A stretch of 64,000 nucleotides of DNA. Source: Fibrobacterales bacterium. Lineage in GTDB: Bacteria; Fibrobacterota; Fibrobacteria; Fibrobacterales; JAOPTW01. Below are positions 30,487 to 41,063 of this stretch, one piece after another. Below the pieces are notes generated by a model, which searched no databases, was not told where the DNA came from, and saw only the letters and a program-made list of their open reading frames with translations. Location of the stretch: contig JAOPTX010000047.1 of NCBI GenBank assembly GCA_051532055.1, positions 32,907 through 96,906 on the forward strand, read 5' to 3'. The position numbers were made by a program, and so were the translations under genes. How positions within the stretch are numbered: the first letter of the stretch is position 1; the number at the start of each line of letters is the position of its first letter.

Positions 30487-31857
30487 ATGAAATTACAGCA
30501 TTATATATATGCCCTCTTGTTACTGACCGTTTTTTCTTGTGAGAGATTGCCGCCGTCAGGAACTGAGCCAGACCTGACAAATACAGGTGGGGTGAGTGAT
30601 GTGTTACTGGTGTCGAGCAATGCAATACATGGAGACAGTAATGCCATACTTATGCTCTCTTCTCAAATGACAATGAGTTCAAGTCACTCGACCGTTTCAA
30701 GTGACCTGAACCCGATTGCCACACCGGTCTCCAGTGCACCCATGGCAGATTCCAATGTGCAACAATCCAGTGTGCAACAATCCAGTGAAGTCGCTTTGTC
30801 TCATGCATATCCTGGGGTTTCATCCGAAATTTCATCCCTCTCTTCAAGTCATTCTGTTAGGTGGAGCGTGTCAAGCACCGTGCTTTCATCATCTCGTACC
30901 CTCACATATTCATCTTCTCGTACACCAGTTACTGAGCTCTCTAGTGAACGGTCATCGAGTTCTTTTGTATCATCATCAGTCAGTAGTTCTTCCTCAATAC
31001 TAGAGTCATCAAGTTTAGAGTTATCGAGTATGGTTCACGTATCGTCGAGTAGTGAGCGTTCTAATCAGTATGTCATATCTGCTAAAAAAGATTTCATTTG
31101 GCATGCGAGCAAGCAGTATCAGTCTGTCTATTATCACCCTATTCAACCGGGCGAATATCCACTTTTTATTTGGATGCCCAATACGAATGCTCCTATCAAC
31201 GATACTTATGTATTACAGATACTCCGCGCAATGAGTAAAAAAGGGTTTGTAGCGGTCGCTCTTGATTATGGACAGGTTGATGATTTTGATCAGGATATAA
31301 CCAAATTATATGCAAAGGCTTCCTCTGTGTTTTCTAAAACCGATTCCCATAGTGCCATTGCAGTGATCGACGATTCAATTCCATCAGTTGATGTATCGCG
31401 GGGTATTGTTGTTGCTGGGTGGGGGCAGGGGGCCTCTGTTTCGGTTGTTGCTCGGGATTATAACCCTCAGGTTCGAGCTGTATTAGCATTTGGTGCAGGT
31501 ATCGGTCAGTACAATTGGCTCGAACCGGCACTCGGTATGGCCAATACTATGATAGATAAGAGTCGACTCCGGTCTATTATTGGAGCTCAAGATCAGTTCA
31601 ATGGTGCTTTGCCTACACATGTTCGCATGCATCAAGAAGTATTAACGGGCTATGGTGATGCGACTCACAATAAATATAATTTTATTCAACCAGATGGGAG
31701 TGGATGGTATATGGTGTATGCCAGTCTTTTGACAACTGGCTCTCCAGATCATGCCTTTTTTAGAAATCAGGATACACTCGAAGAAAACTTTAAGACAGGA
31801 ATGGCATCGTGGTGCCTGCATCCGAGTCTTAATTGGCTTACATTGTTTGTAGATTAG
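30487..31857 (+). CDS. Lipoprotein with long Ser-rich linker and alpha/beta-hydrolase-like domain (nucleophile Ser replaced by Gly)
   Basis: Lipobox VFSC; YPLFIWMP, KGFVAVALDY, GIVVAGWGQGAS, DHAFF. Confidence 0.7.
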   Translation: MKLQHYIYALLLLTVFSCERLPPSGTEPDLTNTGGVSDVLLVSSNAIHGDSNAILMLSSQMTMSSSHSTVSSDLNPIATPVSSAPMADSNVQQSSVQQSSEVALSHAYPGVSSEISSLSSSHSVRWSVSSTVLSSSRTLTYSSSRTPVTELSSERSSSSFVSSSVSSSSSILESSSLELSSMVHVSSSSERSNQYVISAKKDFIWHASKQYQSVYYHPIQPGEYPLFIWMPNTNAPINDTYVLQILRAMSKKGFVAVALDYGQVDDFDQDITKLYAKASSVFSKTDSHSAIAVIDDSIPSVDVSRGIVVAGWGQGASVSVVARDYNPQVRAVLAFGAGIGQYNWLEPALGMANTMIDKSRLRSIIGAQDQFNGALPTHVRMHQEVLTGYGDATHNKYNFIQPDGSGWYMVYASLLTTGSPDHAFFRNQDTLEENFKTGMASWCLHPSLNWLTLFVD

Positions 31858-32468
31858 TGTGATTTATTATAAAAAAGATATCAATGTTAATGCGCCTCTT
31901 GAAGCAATCAATGATGCGCGTGAAGAAGCAGAATATATGAAGGCACGGGCTGCGACTCGATCTGCCTAATATATTTCATCTGCAATGTTAACTATTTCTT
32001 ATAGAGCTTTGAGGTTCGTGTTGATCACTCGTTGAACTCTTTTTCTTCTGCTTTCGTTACCGGTTTGGGTTGTATCAATAGAAAGAGCAGCACGGCACCT
32101 TACTGAGGATGGAGATGTTGTCGGTGAATCTATTACCTGTGGTCTCACTCACCAGCTTAGACGGGTAAAGTCTTGTGTGGATGAGTTTTTGGAGCATCAT
32201 TTCTTGGAGAGGTTTCGGTATGGGGAGGTTGAGGGGGACTAGTACTTTTGGGCTATTTGAATGTGGGGAGATATTTTTATTTTGTTGGGTGCTTCTCTGG
32301 GGCTTATGCAGTACTTGTGTTTTTGCCAGAGAAGTATGTAATGCCAACTTATTTAGTTGTGGCTAATTCTAAAGGGCGGGAAACAATTGTTTTTTGAATT
32401 TTTGAAAACGCCACGTCCTGTGGCGTTGATTTCTATATTGACAATAAATATTCTATAGTGAGTGCTTC

Positions 32469-34103
32469 ATGAATAGAGAGAAGCTTAAAGTATTATTGGC
32501 TAAATTTCTGGATAAGAACTCTAGTGAAAAAGTACTTCTTATAAAAGGTGACTGGGGAGTAGGGAAGTCATTCTTCATTGAAGACTTTCTTGAGGAGTGG
32601 GGGAATGACCCAAAGAATGAAGAAATAAACAATATTGGAATAACTTCTTTATTTGGTGTTTCAGAGTTCAAGCAATGTCTTGGTCGAATTCATTTTCCCA
32701 TAGATTCCAAGAATAGGCTATTCAAAAAAGGATTCTTGTTTTTATCAAATAATGTTAAAAAGTTTTTACCATCTAGTATTCCTACTGGTCTAGGGGTTAA
32801 TTTTGATATTGGTAATGTCTTGGAAACTCTATTGGGTGTTATGCTTAAAAATGGTGTTTTAGTAATCGACGATATTGAGAGGAAAAATAAAGATCTACCG
32901 CTTAGTGGGGTTTTAGGGGCAGCAACATTTTTGGCGGAGAAGAAGTTGCGGAAAATTATAATAGTATTTTCTGAAAAGGACTTAAACGATGACGATAAGG
33001 AAGCAATTCAAGATTTAAGAGAGAAGGTTGTCGATTTAGAATATAAGTTTTCTCCTTCTTCTAACGAGAATGCACAATTGTTTCTAAAGAACCCTAAAAA
33101 AATTGATTTCATAGAACAAATGGAGATTACAAATCTTCGAATTATAAAAAAAATAGAATATGCATGGAAGAATCTAATAACTGGATTTTCATTTGGAAGT
33201 AATGAAATAAGATCCGAATTAATTACAAAAGTAGGAGTGTTGAGCTTAATTCATTTGTCAGATAAAATTCCCTTTAAGGTAGAAGATGTTCTAAATCAAT
33301 ATGAATGGATTTCTGAACGAAAAGATCAGAAAATTATTAAATACAGAAGGATGTTGTCAGATTTAGAATACTATTTTGATGAACGTGATATTCCGATTAT
33401 TAATTTTCTTGCAAATGGAAGCTTTGTTAAAGATAAGTGGCAGGCTTCAATAAACTCTTACTTTACTGATATACAAAGTGAGGAGTTTAAAACTGAGTAC
33501 AGGCAGCTGTGGAAAAATTTCAACGGGAATTTTAAAGTTGATTATGAGACTCTGATTGAAAAGTTTGTAGGGTTTCTTGATGTTAATGCAGAAAAGTTAT
33601 ATCCGAATCAAATAGAAGACATATATAGGCTGTTTGATAATCTTGAATATGATTATACTGCTAGAAAGTGGTTAGAAACTTCCATACAAAATAATTTGGA
33701 GATGCTATCAGACGCTAATGTCAAAAAATATTTATCACAAATTAATGATTCTGAAGTTACAAAGTTACTTGAAGAACGATTAGAAAGAGAAAGTTTAAAA
33801 AGTGACTTTGTAAGTAGTATTAACAGGATAATTGATAATGATCAATGGTATGGTGAAGACTCAATCATCATGCAAAACTCAACGGTAGAAGATTTCAAGG
33901 GTTGGATTTTAAATTCGGAAGATATTAATCTATTGCAAAAATTGAGAAAAGCGAAAGGATATTTGAATGCTCAAAATCATAATTTTGGTAATGCATACAA
34001 TCAATTAATTTCTGCTGCGGAAGAAATTTCTCAAATAGGTAGTACTGAATTCGATAGAAAATTGAATGCAGAGCGTATGAAAACATTTGTTTTAGATGAC
34101 TAG
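32469..34103 (+). CDS. KAP-family P-loop NTPase
   Basis: Walker A IKGDWGVGKS, SLFGV, Walker B VLVIDDIER, REKVVD, NLRIIKK. Confidence 0.85.
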   Translation: MNREKLKVLLAKFLDKNSSEKVLLIKGDWGVGKSFFIEDFLEEWGNDPKNEEINNIGITSLFGVSEFKQCLGRIHFPIDSKNRLFKKGFLFLSNNVKKFLPSSIPTGLGVNFDIGNVLETLLGVMLKNGVLVIDDIERKNKDLPLSGVLGAATFLAEKKLRKIIIVFSEKDLNDDDKEAIQDLREKVVDLEYKFSPSSNENAQLFLKNPKKIDFIEQMEITNLRIIKKIEYAWKNLITGFSFGSNEIRSELITKVGVLSLIHLSDKIPFKVEDVLNQYEWISERKDQKIIKYRRMLSDLEYYFDERDIPIINFLANGSFVKDKWQASINSYFTDIQSEEFKTEYRQLWKNFNGNFKVDYETLIEKFVGFLDVNAEKLYPNQIEDIYRLFDNLEYDYTARKWLETSIQNNLEMLSDANVKKYLSQINDSEVTKLLEERLERESLKSDFVSSINRIIDNDQWYGEDSIIMQNSTVEDFKGWILNSEDINLLQKLRKAKGYLNAQNHNFGNAYNQLISAAEEISQIGSTEFDRKLNAERMKTFVLDD

Positions 34104-34192
34104 TATTTGTTCATGGCTCCCTCATCCCTGAGTGCGCCATGATTTCAAAAATTCAAAAAACCTTTGGCCTATGCTGTAGCCCTTTAGAACTA

Positions 34193-34340
34193 GCCACAAC
34201 ACTCATAGCAGTCAATAATTTGATCATAAGCTAGCTGCATTCAGTCGGTCGCTAAAGCTCCTCGTCTTCATGCAACCCAAGCAAAGCTTGGGAGCTCGCT
34301 AATGATCAAATAACTGCCTACTCTGAGGAACGTTGGGGTT
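34193..34340 (+). repeat. attC-like recombination hairpin 1
   Basis: GCCACAAC...GTTGGGGT ends; inner pairs CTCA/TGAG, TAGCAGT/ACTGCCTA (one bulge), TTTGATCAT/ATGATCAAA, TGCAT/ATGCA. Confidence 0.7.
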
Positions 34341-34439
34341 AATTACAAAGGGCTGGAAAGGTTATTGATTAAAATTTCAGAGCACATCTAGTAACCAATT
34401 TCTATATCTATGTAATATCTTTTCGATTGGTAGCATTTT

Positions 34440-35877
34440 ATGTTTAAAGCATTAGAGCCTTATTATGAAGAATTCCAAGAAAAGCTTCTGAGCGCAATTG
34501 CTCAAGGTTTTAGAGAAATAGAAAAGAATGATCCTAATTCATTGTATTGTAGTAATCATTTTAATTGGCCTTCACTTACTTTTCATAGGAATGGATTACC
34601 TTGGTTATCTAAAAGTTTAAATGGGGATAAGAAGGATTACTCTACTTTTTTCTCTAAATGGGATTCTCTAAAAACTATTGATTATGAAATTCCCAAGTTT
34701 AAAGATTTTATTGATTTTGTTAAGAAATAAATTGATGCCACAAGAGTGGCAGGTAGTTGGGGACAAAGAAGACTTATTCGAAACTACAGGTATACAAAGT
34801 ATTATTACCATGCATATAGACCGTTTCATACATGTTTATGGTGAATTTGAATATTCTGAAGATAAATGTAAAGATATTATCTCAAATTTCATGGAGTTCG
34901 TTTTTGGTGAAAAACTAATAATGGATATTAAAATCCCTATTCTGTTTCTTAATTTTGATTTTGAGTCATATGAATTGACAGAAGGAATTAAAATTCAAAA
35001 ACTTTCTGAAGGTGAGCATTTAGCCAGGTTTGAAGTAAAAAACTATAATTTAAGTGTACATGATTCTGTACTTCAATCTGCCACCCACGCATTGGTACTA
35101 GAACACTATGCAATGTCTAATAATGCAGTATTGTGGGATTTTAAAGAATTAAAGAATAAGGATATTTACCCTAAAGAAATTATAGAACAATTTTTTTCTG
35201 CCTTAAGGATTTGTACAAATTACAAGACTGGCTATGCACAAATATTAGCTGTAGCAGATCATTGGCATGCATTGTGTAAAGCTGATTTACCATATATTGA
35301 TGGTGTTAGTACTAGATCATATTCCAGCGAATTAGAAGATTATTATTGGAATATGCCAGAAGTGCCTATAATATCTTCAGCTACACTTAATGATATCCAA
35401 AATCTATTTATCAAACTTAAAGAAATTTCATCTAATTCAGTTCAATTAGCTACCAAAAGATTAAATAGGTGCTTAACACGTGACAATGAAGAAGATGCAG
35501 TCATTGATGCTACAATAGCCCTTGAAGCATTGCTAGTTGATGAAACAAGTGAAATGACTCACAAGCTAGCGATGAGAGGTGCTGCATTGTCACAACTGTC
35601 GCCTGAAATCACAAAATCTCCAGATAAAGTTTTTAAAGACATAAAAAGCATTTATACATTAAGATCAACTATCGTGCATGGAAGTACTATAACTGATAAA
35701 AAAAGACTTTTACAAGTTAGTGAGAATAAAAAGATACCCGTATTAGATCAGGCTATAGAGTATTTAAGGATATTTCTAAAAATATTAATCTTAAACCCCC
35801 ATTATTTGAAACCAATAGAAATTGACAATGCATTACTAAAAGGTGAAATAGGTGAGGGAGAGGCTCTATACCTATAA
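34440..35877 (+). pseudogene. ApeA-like HEPN-domain protein split into two overlapping frames (34440-34730 and 34678/34735-35877)
   Basis: ALEALL..E..E..HKLA.R and RxxxxH motif LRSTIVHG; frame break at AAGAAATAAA (about 34722-34731). Confidence 0.6.
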
Positions 35878-36130
35878 TAGAGAACGTTGTGGACAATAGG
35901 TGAGGAGTCTGGTGAGTACAACTACAGTATAATTCAAAATTTCAATGAACCAAAATACGTCCTGTTTTTGGTTTTATTTCAAAAGTCGTAAAAAGTGATG
36001 TCCAGACCATTTTCTATACTCGTAAAATTTCTTGTCCTTGTTTAGAAAAATGTGGAGAATAACCACAGGTATTGCGGGTTGCTGAAAAAAAATAATTAAC
36101 TTTATTAAGAAAATTTCTATGGAATAAATA

Positions 36131-36925
36131 ATGATTAAGATGATTTTTCTAGTAAGCTTTTTAGTTTTGTTTTTTACCGGATGCGATAATACTTCTACAA
36201 ATAGTGATAATTCAACTTTAAGTAACCTTGAAGAATCAAGTGACTGGATTCAATACTATAAGAAAAATGACCCTTGTGTGGCAATTACCGGTGGTACGTT
36301 TATAATGGGTGATACTCATCAAAGAGAAGAGCCTTCTAATGAAAATATACCTCATGAGGTGACGGTCAGTGATTTCTGTATAGATTCTGTTGAAGTTACT
36401 AGAATTATGTACGAACGGGTTACGGGAGGTACTGCCGAATTTCAAGACTGTGAAGAAAATAACTGCCCCATTGTAAACGTTCTTAAAAATCAGTCCGAAG
36501 GGTTTTGTTCACTACTAGGGAAACGTCTTCCTACAGAAGCAGAATGGGAATACGCCTACAGAGCCGGGACTACTACACTTTTTTTCTGGGGTGATGACCC
36601 GTTTGATGATGCAATAGCCGAAGAATATGCATACTTTGAAGCAATGTCGTACAAGATGTTTGAAGTTGCCCAAAAAAAACCAAACCCATGGGGACTCTAT
36701 GACATGGGAGGAAATGCTGAAGAGATTGTTAGTGACTGGTATGCAAGAGACTATTATGAAAATAGTCCCTCGATAGACCCTGCTGGACCTGAAGAAACTA
36801 CTCCATATATAATACTGCGCGGCGGGGATTTTATATCGGGTCTTGAAGAACTGCAATCAGCTACCAGAGAATATTCTAGCGTTGAACACAAAACTAGTGC
36901 TACTGGCTTCAGGTGTGCTCAATAA
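36131..36925 (+). CDS. FGE-sulfatase/SUMF1 domain lipoprotein
   Basis: Lipobox FTGC; GGTFIMG, PHEV, RLPTEAEWEYA, KPNPWGLYDMGGNA, RGG, GFRC. Confidence 0.92.
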   Translation: MIKMIFLVSFLVLFFTGCDNTSTNSDNSTLSNLEESSDWIQYYKKNDPCVAITGGTFIMGDTHQREEPSNENIPHEVTVSDFCIDSVEVTRIMYERVTGGTAEFQDCEENNCPIVNVLKNQSEGFCSLLGKRLPTEAEWEYAYRAGTTTLFFWGDDPFDDAIAEEYAYFEAMSYKMFEVAQKKPNPWGLYDMGGNAEEIVSDWYARDYYENSPSIDPAGPEETTPYIILRGGDFISGLEELQSATREYSSVEHKTSATGFRCAQ

Positions 36926-37081
36926 TTGTTAAACTATTTGAAATAGTTATGAGTTTAAGGGTTATAAGTTGTTTAACCTTTATTCATTGAGGCATTTCCA
37001 TTGAAGTGTTTCTTTTTGCACATATTCATTATGGGTGATTTTCATTTTTTTGAAACAGTAACTAAAACTCCTCACCTACTC

Positions 37082-37162
37082 GCTACAACAGCCGAAGCAC
37101 GCAAGCTTTTTTTCTATGCACTGAAGTGCAAAAAGCCTGCGTAGGTTCGCCAAGCGTTGTGC
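37082..37162 (+). repeat. attC-like recombination hairpin 2
   Basis: GCTACAAC...GTTGTGC ends; CGAAGCACGCAAGCTTTT/AAAAGCCTGCGTAGGTTCG and TGCAC/GTGCA stems. Confidence 0.68.
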
Positions 37163-37305
37163 GATGTAGCTGGGGGTATCTGCGATACAGTACCCCTACA
37201 CGATGGAACAGTGCTCCTACAGATAATTTCTTATGACAGGAAACCTAGTGAAGGTTGTCATTTGCTTAAAATGCAGAAGTTGTACCGTGGGATATTGATA
37301 CTGTT

Positions 37306-38955
37306 TTACAATCCAATCGACTGCTTAACCTCATCCACCACCGCATCCTGATCACTGAGCAGCCCTTCAAGGTCTGCTACAGCCTTTTTCCAACTTGAAA
37401 GTGTTTGAGGGCTTGCAGGATAACCAGCTTCTAAAACTTTTTCCTGCTGCATTTCTTCAACAACGGGTTCGATCATCTCTTTCCATTTGTTTAATATCAT
37501 TGCTCTTTTACTTTGTACTCTATCATACAATTCCTCAAATACTGTAGCGTATTGGTCGGGATAACAGAACCAATATTTCTCATACGGAGTTGAGGGAGTA
37601 AAAGAACACCCCGGATACCCTTTGACCGACCAGGCATCATCGAGTTCGGGCCAATAACTTTGTCCAAGATGCTGATAGTATTCATCAACCATGTCATGAT
37701 CCCATGGAATCATAAGAACTTTTTGGCTTTCAGGTAACACTACTGAATATGAATTATGCCCATTGGTCTGTGTGTTAACCCAGGTACCCATAAAAGGGGT
37801 GTCGTAGCTCAGAACTGCTTGGGCAGTAGCCACATGCCTGAGCAGTATATTTAAATCACCCCATGTATCTATGAATGATTTATACTCTTCTTTGTTTTGG
37901 ACGGTATTAAGAGCTGTTTCAAAATTTTGAACAACACTATGATCATCCTCCACTTCATTCGTTTTTAATAAATCAGAAAAGGTATTTGATTTGCTCAGTG
38001 GCCAGTAGTGTTTGTAAATATTACCACCATCATCATTAAAGTGATAGCGGGTAAATCTTCCATCAATTTGTTCAACCAATAAAAAGAGCCCTTCGAGCTT
38101 TCCGTTAATAAGGAGTCTAACATGAGTCGTTCGAGAAGCGGGAACACCCATTTCTCGGTATGCCCAATACGCAAAACGTTCACCCATATATGATGGGCCA
38201 TGATTCATTGAATGAAACTGCAGCTTTTTTAATCCATAATAGAGGCGATCAGGATATTGATCGGTATTAAATTTTACTTTCATAGATAACTTACACTGCT
38301 TTGGAGCATCAGCATCATCTTCCTTTGCACAGGGCCACCAGGAGCCCTCCGAGCCTTTGTATCGTATGAAAACATTTTTTGTGGTGTCTTCCTGGAATAC
38401 AATAGATCCAGGTACATATTCTTCTGCTATCGGGTTGGCATCTATACGATCCAGGTCATTAGGTTTTATTAACAGATTAAAGGTGTAGAGTGAATCTGGG
38501 TGAAATATATATCGGGATGAATCGCGCCAATCAGCAGTGGAAAGCAGTGTTGCGCCACTGAGCTCTTCACGATTCTTGTTTTCTTCTCGTATAATAGGCA
38601 GGTCTGTTATAGGGGGACTCGATTCAGAGCTACTAAGATGTACATCTGTTGCAGAAGAGTGCATGATATTGTGCGATATCGTTTCATGTGAACGACTCAT
38701 TTGTTCCAATGAAGAAGTATTCTCTTGGATTTTGCTCGACTGAAGTTCACTACTTGAATAGGGAGTACCCTGGGAGATTGCTTCTTCCAATGAGGAATCA
38801 AAAGAACTCAATTCAAGTGAATCTTTTAAAGAAGTTTCAGAATTTGGTGTCTCTTCATTCTCAATAGTTACTGGCAAATCATTATGGGTGTTTTGGCTAC
38901 AGTTTAAGAGAAAGAATACCATTAAGAGTGGTGCTGCAATACAGAATTTTTTCAT
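37306..38955 (-). CDS. CotH-family kinase lipoprotein with Ser-rich linker
   Basis: IRYKGS, KLSMKVKF, GLKKLQFH, GVPASRT, GLFLLVEQID, IPWDHD; start ATG 38955, lipobox LLNC. Confidence 0.85.
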   Translation of the reverse strand: MKKFCIAAPLLMVFFLLNCSQNTHNDLPVTIENEETPNSETSLKDSLELSSFDSSLEEAISQGTPYSSSELQSSKIQENTSSLEQMSRSHETISHNIMHSSATDVHLSSSESSPPITDLPIIREENKNREELSGATLLSTADWRDSSRYIFHPDSLYTFNLLIKPNDLDRIDANPIAEEYVPGSIVFQEDTTKNVFIRYKGSEGSWWPCAKEDDADAPKQCKLSMKVKFNTDQYPDRLYYGLKKLQFHSMNHGPSYMGERFAYWAYREMGVPASRTTHVRLLINGKLEGLFLLVEQIDGRFTRYHFNDDGGNIYKHYWPLSKSNTFSDLLKTNEVEDDHSVVQNFETALNTVQNKEEYKSFIDTWGDLNILLRHVATAQAVLSYDTPFMGTWVNTQTNGHNSYSVVLPESQKVLMIPWDHDMVDEYYQHLGQSYWPELDDAWSVKGYPGCSFTPSTPYEKYWFCYPDQYATVFEELYDRVQSKRAMILNKWKEMIEPVVEEMQQEKVLEAGYPASPQTLSSWKKAVADLEGLLSDQDAVVDEVKQSIGL

Positions 38956-40687: not shown

Positions 40688-41063
40688 TTGACTCGTCGTT
40701 CTCGGGTATTAACGAGCCGGATACCATATCAACTATCCTTTGAGCATAATTAACTAGTGGACCTCTATCTTTCACAAACTTTTGGCCATGATTCACTATC
40801 CGATTATGGATATTAGCTCGTGGATGCCCATATTCCACTAACTTTTGCGCCTGATTCACTGGTCGCTCGTGGATATTAGCTAGTGGACGCCTACATTTCC
40901 CTAACTTTTGGCCATGATTCACTATCCGATCGAGGATATTAGCTAGTAGACGCCCATCTTTCACTAACTTTTGATCACAATTCACTAGTGGACCGCGACT
41001 TTAGCTCGTGGATACTCACTTGTCACAAGTTTTTTAGACTCATGTGTAAGTGGACCTCCATAG
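40688..41063. repeat. Degenerate 21-nt tandem repeat array with 63-nt higher-order period
   Basis: About 17 units, e.g. TTCACTATCCGATTATGGATA / TTAGCTCGTGGATGCCCATAT / TCCACTAACTTTTGCGCCTGA. Confidence 0.85.

Follow-up and report, generated by a model that had tools for sequence, protein, structure and literature searches.

Complementarity between the two ends of a gene cassette is a known property of ordinary integrons, where it extends over 9-11 nt according to the accessible text of PMC2727003. A skew towards G-T pairs on the bottom strand has been reported for attC sites (PMC5027507), and integron integrases are defined by the IntI insertion (PMC9024848, PMC8138268, bioRxiv 2022.02.06.479319). 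The origin of folded attC sites and of the I2 domain has been posed as a chicken-and-egg problem (PMC4792948). Loss of a fold upon integration is known from CTX phage, which once integrated cannot refold and is not excised (PMC5357621).

A preliminary description of a stretch of 64,000 nucleotides from a Fibrobacterales bacterium (the window) drew attention to a cassette whose ends match over a length far above the about 7 nt of pairing that it took to be canonical, a figure for which the published 9-11 nt must be substituted. It had suggested a non-canonical class of cassettes, and this is borne out: the matching arms are the cassettes' own ends rather than the ends of an IS or MITE or a dispersed repeat. 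Within the recombination site that belongs to the cassette itself they would make up the outer half, and the integron-like system may be served by a Xer-like tyrosine recombinase.

The array in the window and the ends of cassette 1

The array is headed by an attI-like site (32290..32355, plus strand) made up of a small hairpin (z -3.5) and, 7 nt ahead of the crossover GTT, an L-like box TGC-NN-AC; the ORF list of the window contains no recombinase upstream of it or beside it. Cassette 1 starts at the next base. Its left arm 1 (32356-32377, plus strand), in which the first 12 nt have the layout G-TT-N6-AAT, is paired at 21 of 22 positions with the right arm 1 (34179-34200, minus strand), which includes the R'' AAC and has G instead of A at position 11. 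The left arm 2 (32389-32407, plus strand) is paired at 19/19 positions with 34143-34161 on the minus strand, so that 40 of 41 positions are paired over both arms. The inverted repeat of ~55 bp first proposed therefore stands as to its places and both identities but not as one continuous run of 55 bp, the two arms being separated by unpaired spacers of 11 nt on the left and 17 nt on the right and covering 52 and 58 nt respectively. Within the arms lie a start-side hairpin (32407..32427) with the bottom-strand loop GGA, whose top strand is also terminator-like, the cargo gene (32469..34103, plus strand) and an end-side hairpin (34112..34141) with the bottom-strand loop GGGA. The unit had been drawn as ending at 34200 (32356..34200); it continues through its own attC-like site of the long form (34194..34338, minus strand) to the crossover G at 34332. 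The bottom strand of this site folds with -32.7 kcal/mol (z -7.0, with none of 200 shuffles as good), the fold shows bulges and wobbles, and related copies of the site are present on 7 other contigs. Long-form sites have a common inner core of 75 nt (34227-34302 in the window), with copies on seven other contigs, which looks like a module put into the variable loop of the attC.

The match between the arms of cassette 1 goes beyond chance. When up to 2 mismatches are allowed arm 1 occurs only at these two places in the 5.17-Mb genome, and the same is true of exact copies of arm 2, which is found at 7 places with 2 mismatches because it is A/T-rich. A single contig from sequencing run X1, which may be the source sample, covers 32006-34225 at a depth of 436 with no differences and both arms therefore lie on one assembled piece. 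Comparison of the flanks of cassette 1 revealed no shared target-site duplication. No circle or excision joint was found in the contigs of two sequencing runs, where absence from contigs proves nothing, and one contig joint from 37173 to 34239, at a depth of 25, has no clear interpretation.

The cargo of cassette 1 is predicted to be a 544-aa KAP-family P-loop NTPase and is a candidate anti-phage protein, with matches to PF07693 (KAP; E 3.8e-5) and to the PADLOC candidate PDC-S49 (E 2.2e-17). Besides the protein itself 6 homologs were obtained, with identities of 22-44%. A metagenome scan with the single protein as query gave no homologs and one with an alignment as query gave 9 loci, none of which (0/9) had matching ends in a scan for them. 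With the arm-1 class of cassette 1 occurring on other cargos as well, the idea that the end repeat is the trace of an inverted-repeat-flanked KAP unit finds no support.

Cassette 2 (34332..35848, plus strand) begins with the same arm-1 class as cassette 1. Only the last 37 nt of an IS110-family element, a right-end remnant (35849..35885, plus strand), are left at its ORF, and cassette 2 has thus lost its end and attC. The contig support for the joint at which the remnant is fused to the ORF is borderline, extending 29 letters past it. The cargo (34440-35877) consists of overlapping ORFs of 96 aa and 399 aa, possibly a frameshift, for which domain-profile and defence-profile searches gave no family match. 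Elsewhere the IS110-family element sits inside these attC sites; it is present in many copies and inserts just before the crossover GTT, where it breaks the assembly (whole on contig C122 of the source genome, and at the ends of C33, C45, C75, C89, C136 and C141). Cassette 3 (35886..37089, plus strand) encodes a lipoprotein with an FGE-sulfatase domain, has matching ends of its own over 23 nt (83% complementary) and is followed by a short-form attC-like site (37083..37162, minus strand) with the crossover G at 37156. In a scan for a promoter comparable to the Pc of integrons, which precedes the first cassette, promoter-like sites were no more frequent than by chance (6 against 9.2).

Two features beyond the last attC deserve mention. 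An inverted cassette-end motif with G at position 11 (37156-37190) lies just below a minus-strand CotH gene and has no cognate start in the window, the contig or the genome; it may have been left behind by a top-strand insertion. A degenerate 63-bp tandem repeat of about four copies (40732-41023) lies between the CotH genes and the ORF that follows.

End pairing across the cassette family

The attC family was collected by motif and HMM scans from the source genome (G000) and a congener (G001). Cassette starts were set from the att sites and not from complementarity, each start was paired with the next end, and the resulting set was edited by hand, with five starts and one end added and three calls removed. 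Of the 44 start-to-end segments in the two genomes, 26 matched their own end at 15 or more of the 20 positions 5-24 and 35 did so at 12 or more, whereas only 2.6% of 1,892 non-cognate pairs reached 15. None of 100,000 permutations reached the observed sum of own-end matches. The result is retained when one member is taken per start class (15/27 own pairs against 3/702 non-cognate pairs) and in the source genome alone (22/37 segments). The paired length had a median of 22 nt and a range of 12-32 nt. A survey of other attC-like sites, which the preliminary description had called for, has thus revealed the extended complementarity in most members of the family, and the long pairing is not peculiar to cassette 1. 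Nine segments scored below 12; three of these are 6-19 kb long and others begin after a last attC. Some of the nine are probably not single cassettes, while three look like true cassettes with little pairing beyond the box. A control is provided by the attC family that adjoins the canonical IntI on contig C108, in which five cassettes were paired for 7, 9, 9, 10 and 11 nt and none reached 15, although with n=5 the control is small.

The segments fall into 27 start classes with up to 6 members each. The class of cassette 1 is shared by cassettes with other genes, and the ORFs of its members differ in length and N-terminal sequence, as judged by reading rather than alignment. Two near-identical cassettes of 292 bp in the source genome (C89:8030-8321 and C100:10107-10398) have matching ends and the end-side hairpin and are too short for the usual cargo; they are possible empty shells.

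Within arm 1 only GTTG and positions 11-12 are conserved across the family. Positions 5-8 use all four bases and yet were matched in 27-34 of 34 pairs, and in three cassettes of cassette 1's class positions 5, 14 and 15 change at both ends together. At position 11 all 34 distinct pairs combine an A in the start with a G in the end, with the caveat that three hand-added starts came from a scan demanding the position-11 motif; ends found from the attC side alone, 31 of 35, all have G there. On the bottom strand this combination can pair as a G-T wobble; on the top strand it is a mismatch. The other mismatches in positions 5-20 comprise 26 that are G-T on the bottom strand, 3 that are G-T on the top strand and 23 that are neither. 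The skew of 26:3, which follows that reported for attC sites, has a binomial probability of 1.5e-5, a value that ignores relatedness, and related cassettes inflate the counts. Arm 1 shares its layout G-TT-N6-AAT with the XerD arm of E. coli dif given in PMC3325230. The family cassettes end, as in classical integrons, with a hairpin attC that lies between AAC and GTT, but with positions 5-8 free and the pairing at its median of 22 nt the R-box consensus RYYYAAC / GTTRRRY does not hold for them.

Arm 2 is less common. An exact inner match of at least 12 nt was found in only 10/44 own pairs, compared with 27 of the 1,892 non-cognate ones, and arm 2 is therefore dispensable. In the long form it is accompanied by two hairpins with a bottom-strand GGA loop, antisense to the cargo. 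The start-side hairpin was found in 14/35 cassettes compared with a mean of 2.6 and a maximum of 7 in shuffles; the bulged end-side hairpin, in 4/35 by a strict test, was no more frequent than chance. Both hairpins were present in 12/35 and neither in 19/35, counts for motifs that were defined after the data had been seen. In a model of the circular form of cassette 1, arm 2 terminates right at the two hairpins. The bottom strand of this reconstructed circle folds with -89.7 kcal/mol, compared with -56.9 kcal/mol in the array and -76.3 kcal/mol for the top strand, in agreement with the earlier proposal that the arms extend the attC stem in the circular form; they do so in that form only. For 25 of 26 cassettes the circle has a better fold than the array, a consequence of the complementarity rather than independent evidence.

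Recombinases and the likely role of the arms

The attI-like layout of hairpin, L-like box TGC-NN-AC and GTT was found at 6 sites in the source genome, plus one doubtful site, with 9 nt between the arm dinucleotides and the L-like box 7 nt from GTT, a spacing that is wider than expected for a dif-type site, in which two 11-bp arms flank a centre of 6-8 bp. Such sites are dispersed, each at the head of a short array (C3, C46, C47, C72 and two on C115 in the source genome; several on C11, C23 and C24 in the congener). Most arrays of the family in the source genome have no recombinase beside them. On C46, however, a gene for a 364-aa tyrosine recombinase is divergent from an attI-like site and a cassette that falls into the same class as cassette 1, and a recombinase faces an attI-like site and cassette in the same arrangement in the congener; there is one recombinase of this type per genome. 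It passes the XerA-type profile NF040815 (230 bits, cut-off 220) and fails the IntI profile TIGR02249 (184, cut-off 265), its nearest solved structure is archaeal XerA, and it lacks the IntI insertion that is present in the C108 IntI and in a protein encoded on C44. The XerC-like and XerD-like genes of the genome are separate from it. The distribution of the C46 recombinase is patchy, with matches in 2 of 40 relatives at E 1e-30, one of them weak (33%). Among the 36 recombinase-homolog loci inspected, many of which end at contig edges, cassettes with ends that match at 18-19 of 21 positions adjoin the homolog in L012, L013 and L016. L009 is also clearly long-paired, is the same cassette as L051 and was counted once; the remaining rows, with scores of 16-17, were regarded as noise or short boxes. 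In several Flavobacterium loci the box motif recurs in attC-like sites, but the pairing is shorter. From its position the C46 recombinase is inferred to be the enzyme of these cassettes. The C108 IntI, or the recombinase on C44, might also act on these sites. The latter (L002:1189-2394) has 401 aa, an IntI-like insertion and a score under the IntI cut-off; Gln replaces the second catalytic His of the others, a homolog is present in the congener, and the family scans found no attC on its contig.

As far as the sequences and their computed folds can tell, the ends co-vary, good pairing is confined to the bottom strand and the long stem requires a circle in which start and end meet. The reading preferred here, with a probability of roughly 0.6, is that the first 12 nt of arm 1 are a Xer-type binding arm and that its remainder clamps the single-stranded circle after excision and so shifts the balance towards integration. 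The binding arm would comprise 11 bp with the fixed G-T wobble, nt 13-22 would clamp the folded strand, and in long-form cassettes such as cassette 1 arm 2 and the two GGA-loop hairpins would add to the clamp. In the array an attC faces the start of its neighbour and usually few bases would pair, whereas 22-41 would pair in the circle, and as a substrate the free circle would thus be much better folded than its attC when placed in the array. Since the neighbour's start is unmatched in the array, insertion at attI-like sites would be favoured over excision, for which integrated CTX phage (PMC5357621) is a precedent.

Other explanations differ in how much of this they can accommodate. It is unlikely, taken as a sufficient account, that the matching ends are a scar of cassette genesis, in which one end was copied from the other or genes were loaded into ready-made shells via a DNA or RNA intermediate with pairing ends, the pairing doing little later. 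Such an origin agrees with the reuse of end classes with differing cargos and with the occurrence of arm 2 and both GGA hairpins as a package. The genome also has CsrA, and the GGA loops recall CsrA-binding RNA sites. For cassette genesis there was as yet no model in 2016 (PMC4792948). Plain copying, however, would erase the fixed A/G at position 11, the 26:3 wobble skew is not predicted, the GGA loops lie antisense to the cargo and a search of 31800-37400 at E 1 yielded nothing in Rfam. Such a scar or shell can coexist with the role of binding arm and clamp preferred above and both may hold. Less likely still is that these are ordinary cassettes moved by the canonical IntI, with the long match a habit of the lineage beyond 9-11 nt and the XerA-like gene a bystander. 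A canonical IntI is present in both genomes, the crossover GTT/AAC, the order of gene then attC and the bottom-strand skew are integron-like, and most arrays of the family in the source genome lack an adjacent recombinase; against this, the IntI has an attC family of its own, which is different and short-paired, and in both genomes and at three other loci an attI-like site and long-paired cassettes lie opposite the XerA-like gene.

Two further readings dispense with folding or with recombination sites altogether. Were the ends just duplex binding boxes of double-stranded Xer-type modules, as in dif modules, the XerD-like box layout and a recombinase nearest to XerA, without the domain that reads folded attC sites, would be explained; private sequence that co-varies to 22 nt and a strand-biased wobble are unneeded for duplex binding, the attC hairpin is strong, and this reading is very unlikely. 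An origin of the arms as ends of an IS or MITE, as a dispersed repeat or through faulty assembly is scarcely credible, although two inverted ends lie around one gene and IS110 elements are common in these arrays. In most cassettes the GTT and AAC of the att sites mark the exact beginning of the arms, the unit has no transposase and one clean contig covers both arms. Own-end pairing at att sites across the family, the uniqueness of arm 1 within 2 mismatches and the absence of a target duplication refute an identity with IS or MITE ends or with a dispersed repeat, the alternative raised in the preliminary description.

Comparison with known systems

The system works like an integron but fails two of the defining tests, the IntI insertion and the R-box consensus. 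It is a tentative suggestion that it represents a second class of integron-like platform, with a Xer-like recombinase without the I2 domain and with cassettes that are reusable self-closing shells, the private stem, the optional second arm and two protein-binding hairpins giving directionality without the reading of extrahelical bases. If this is true the class would bridge Xer-hijacking elements and integrons as a living intermediate, and reuse of the shells would be a route to new cassettes. Folded-site cassette arrays beside an insertion-less enzyme make the origin of attC and I2, as well as cassette genesis, testable, and as both systems occur side by side in one genome their enzymes and sites can be crossed directly. 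Profile tools would score such arrays, which carry candidate defence genes such as that for the putative KAP NTPase of cassette 1, as integrase-less clusters.

Classical integrons, both class 1 and the sedentary ones of Vibrio, share with this system tandem cassettes of gene plus attC, the GTT/AAC crossover, hairpin attC sites with a bottom-strand G-T skew, a divergent recombinase before the first site and complementarity between a cassette's own ends. They differ in pairing over 9-11 nt (PMC2727003, accessible text) rather than a median of 22 nt (12-32) with a fixed wobble, and it is only here that an optional second arm with hairpins, several dispersed attI-like sites per genome and a linked recombinase without the IntI insertion are seen. 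In classical integrons an extrahelical G in L'' selects the bottom strand, whose fold at the attC of cassette 1 contains bulges and wobbles. Their bottom-strand-specific recombination with replicative resolution has a hint of a counterpart here in the wobble skew. Xer/dif systems and IMEX are alike in the XerA-like enzyme and the TT-N6-AAT layout of the XerD arm, and the attP of CTX phage in acting as a folded single strand, a substrate that integration abolishes (PMC5357621). This system differs from Xer/dif and IMEX in having its own accessory recombinase beside an array instead of host XerCD at dif, many cassettes with private ends and another distance from L to R. The three-cassette array of the window resembles CALINs in having no recombinase beside it, but has kept an attI-like first site, and the candidate enzyme elsewhere in the genome would escape IntI-domain profiles. 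MITEs and IS elements with terminal inverted repeats likewise have inverted ends around a cargo; here there is no target duplication and no transposase, and each cassette class has ends of its own, which are anchored at att sites.

The accessible literature searched, a scope that leaves out subscription papers and older accounts of Vibrio cassette ends, contains no description of cassette-end pairing over 20 nt. Nor are arrays with an insertion-less recombinase described in the accessible parts of that literature, which included PMC8876359, PMC1382264, PMC8352920, PMC8618304, PMC4792948, PMC3607928, PMC8946536 and PMC5027507. The present case contributes a further lineage, a canonical control within the same genome, the layout of the Xer arm and a subclass with arm 2 and hairpins.
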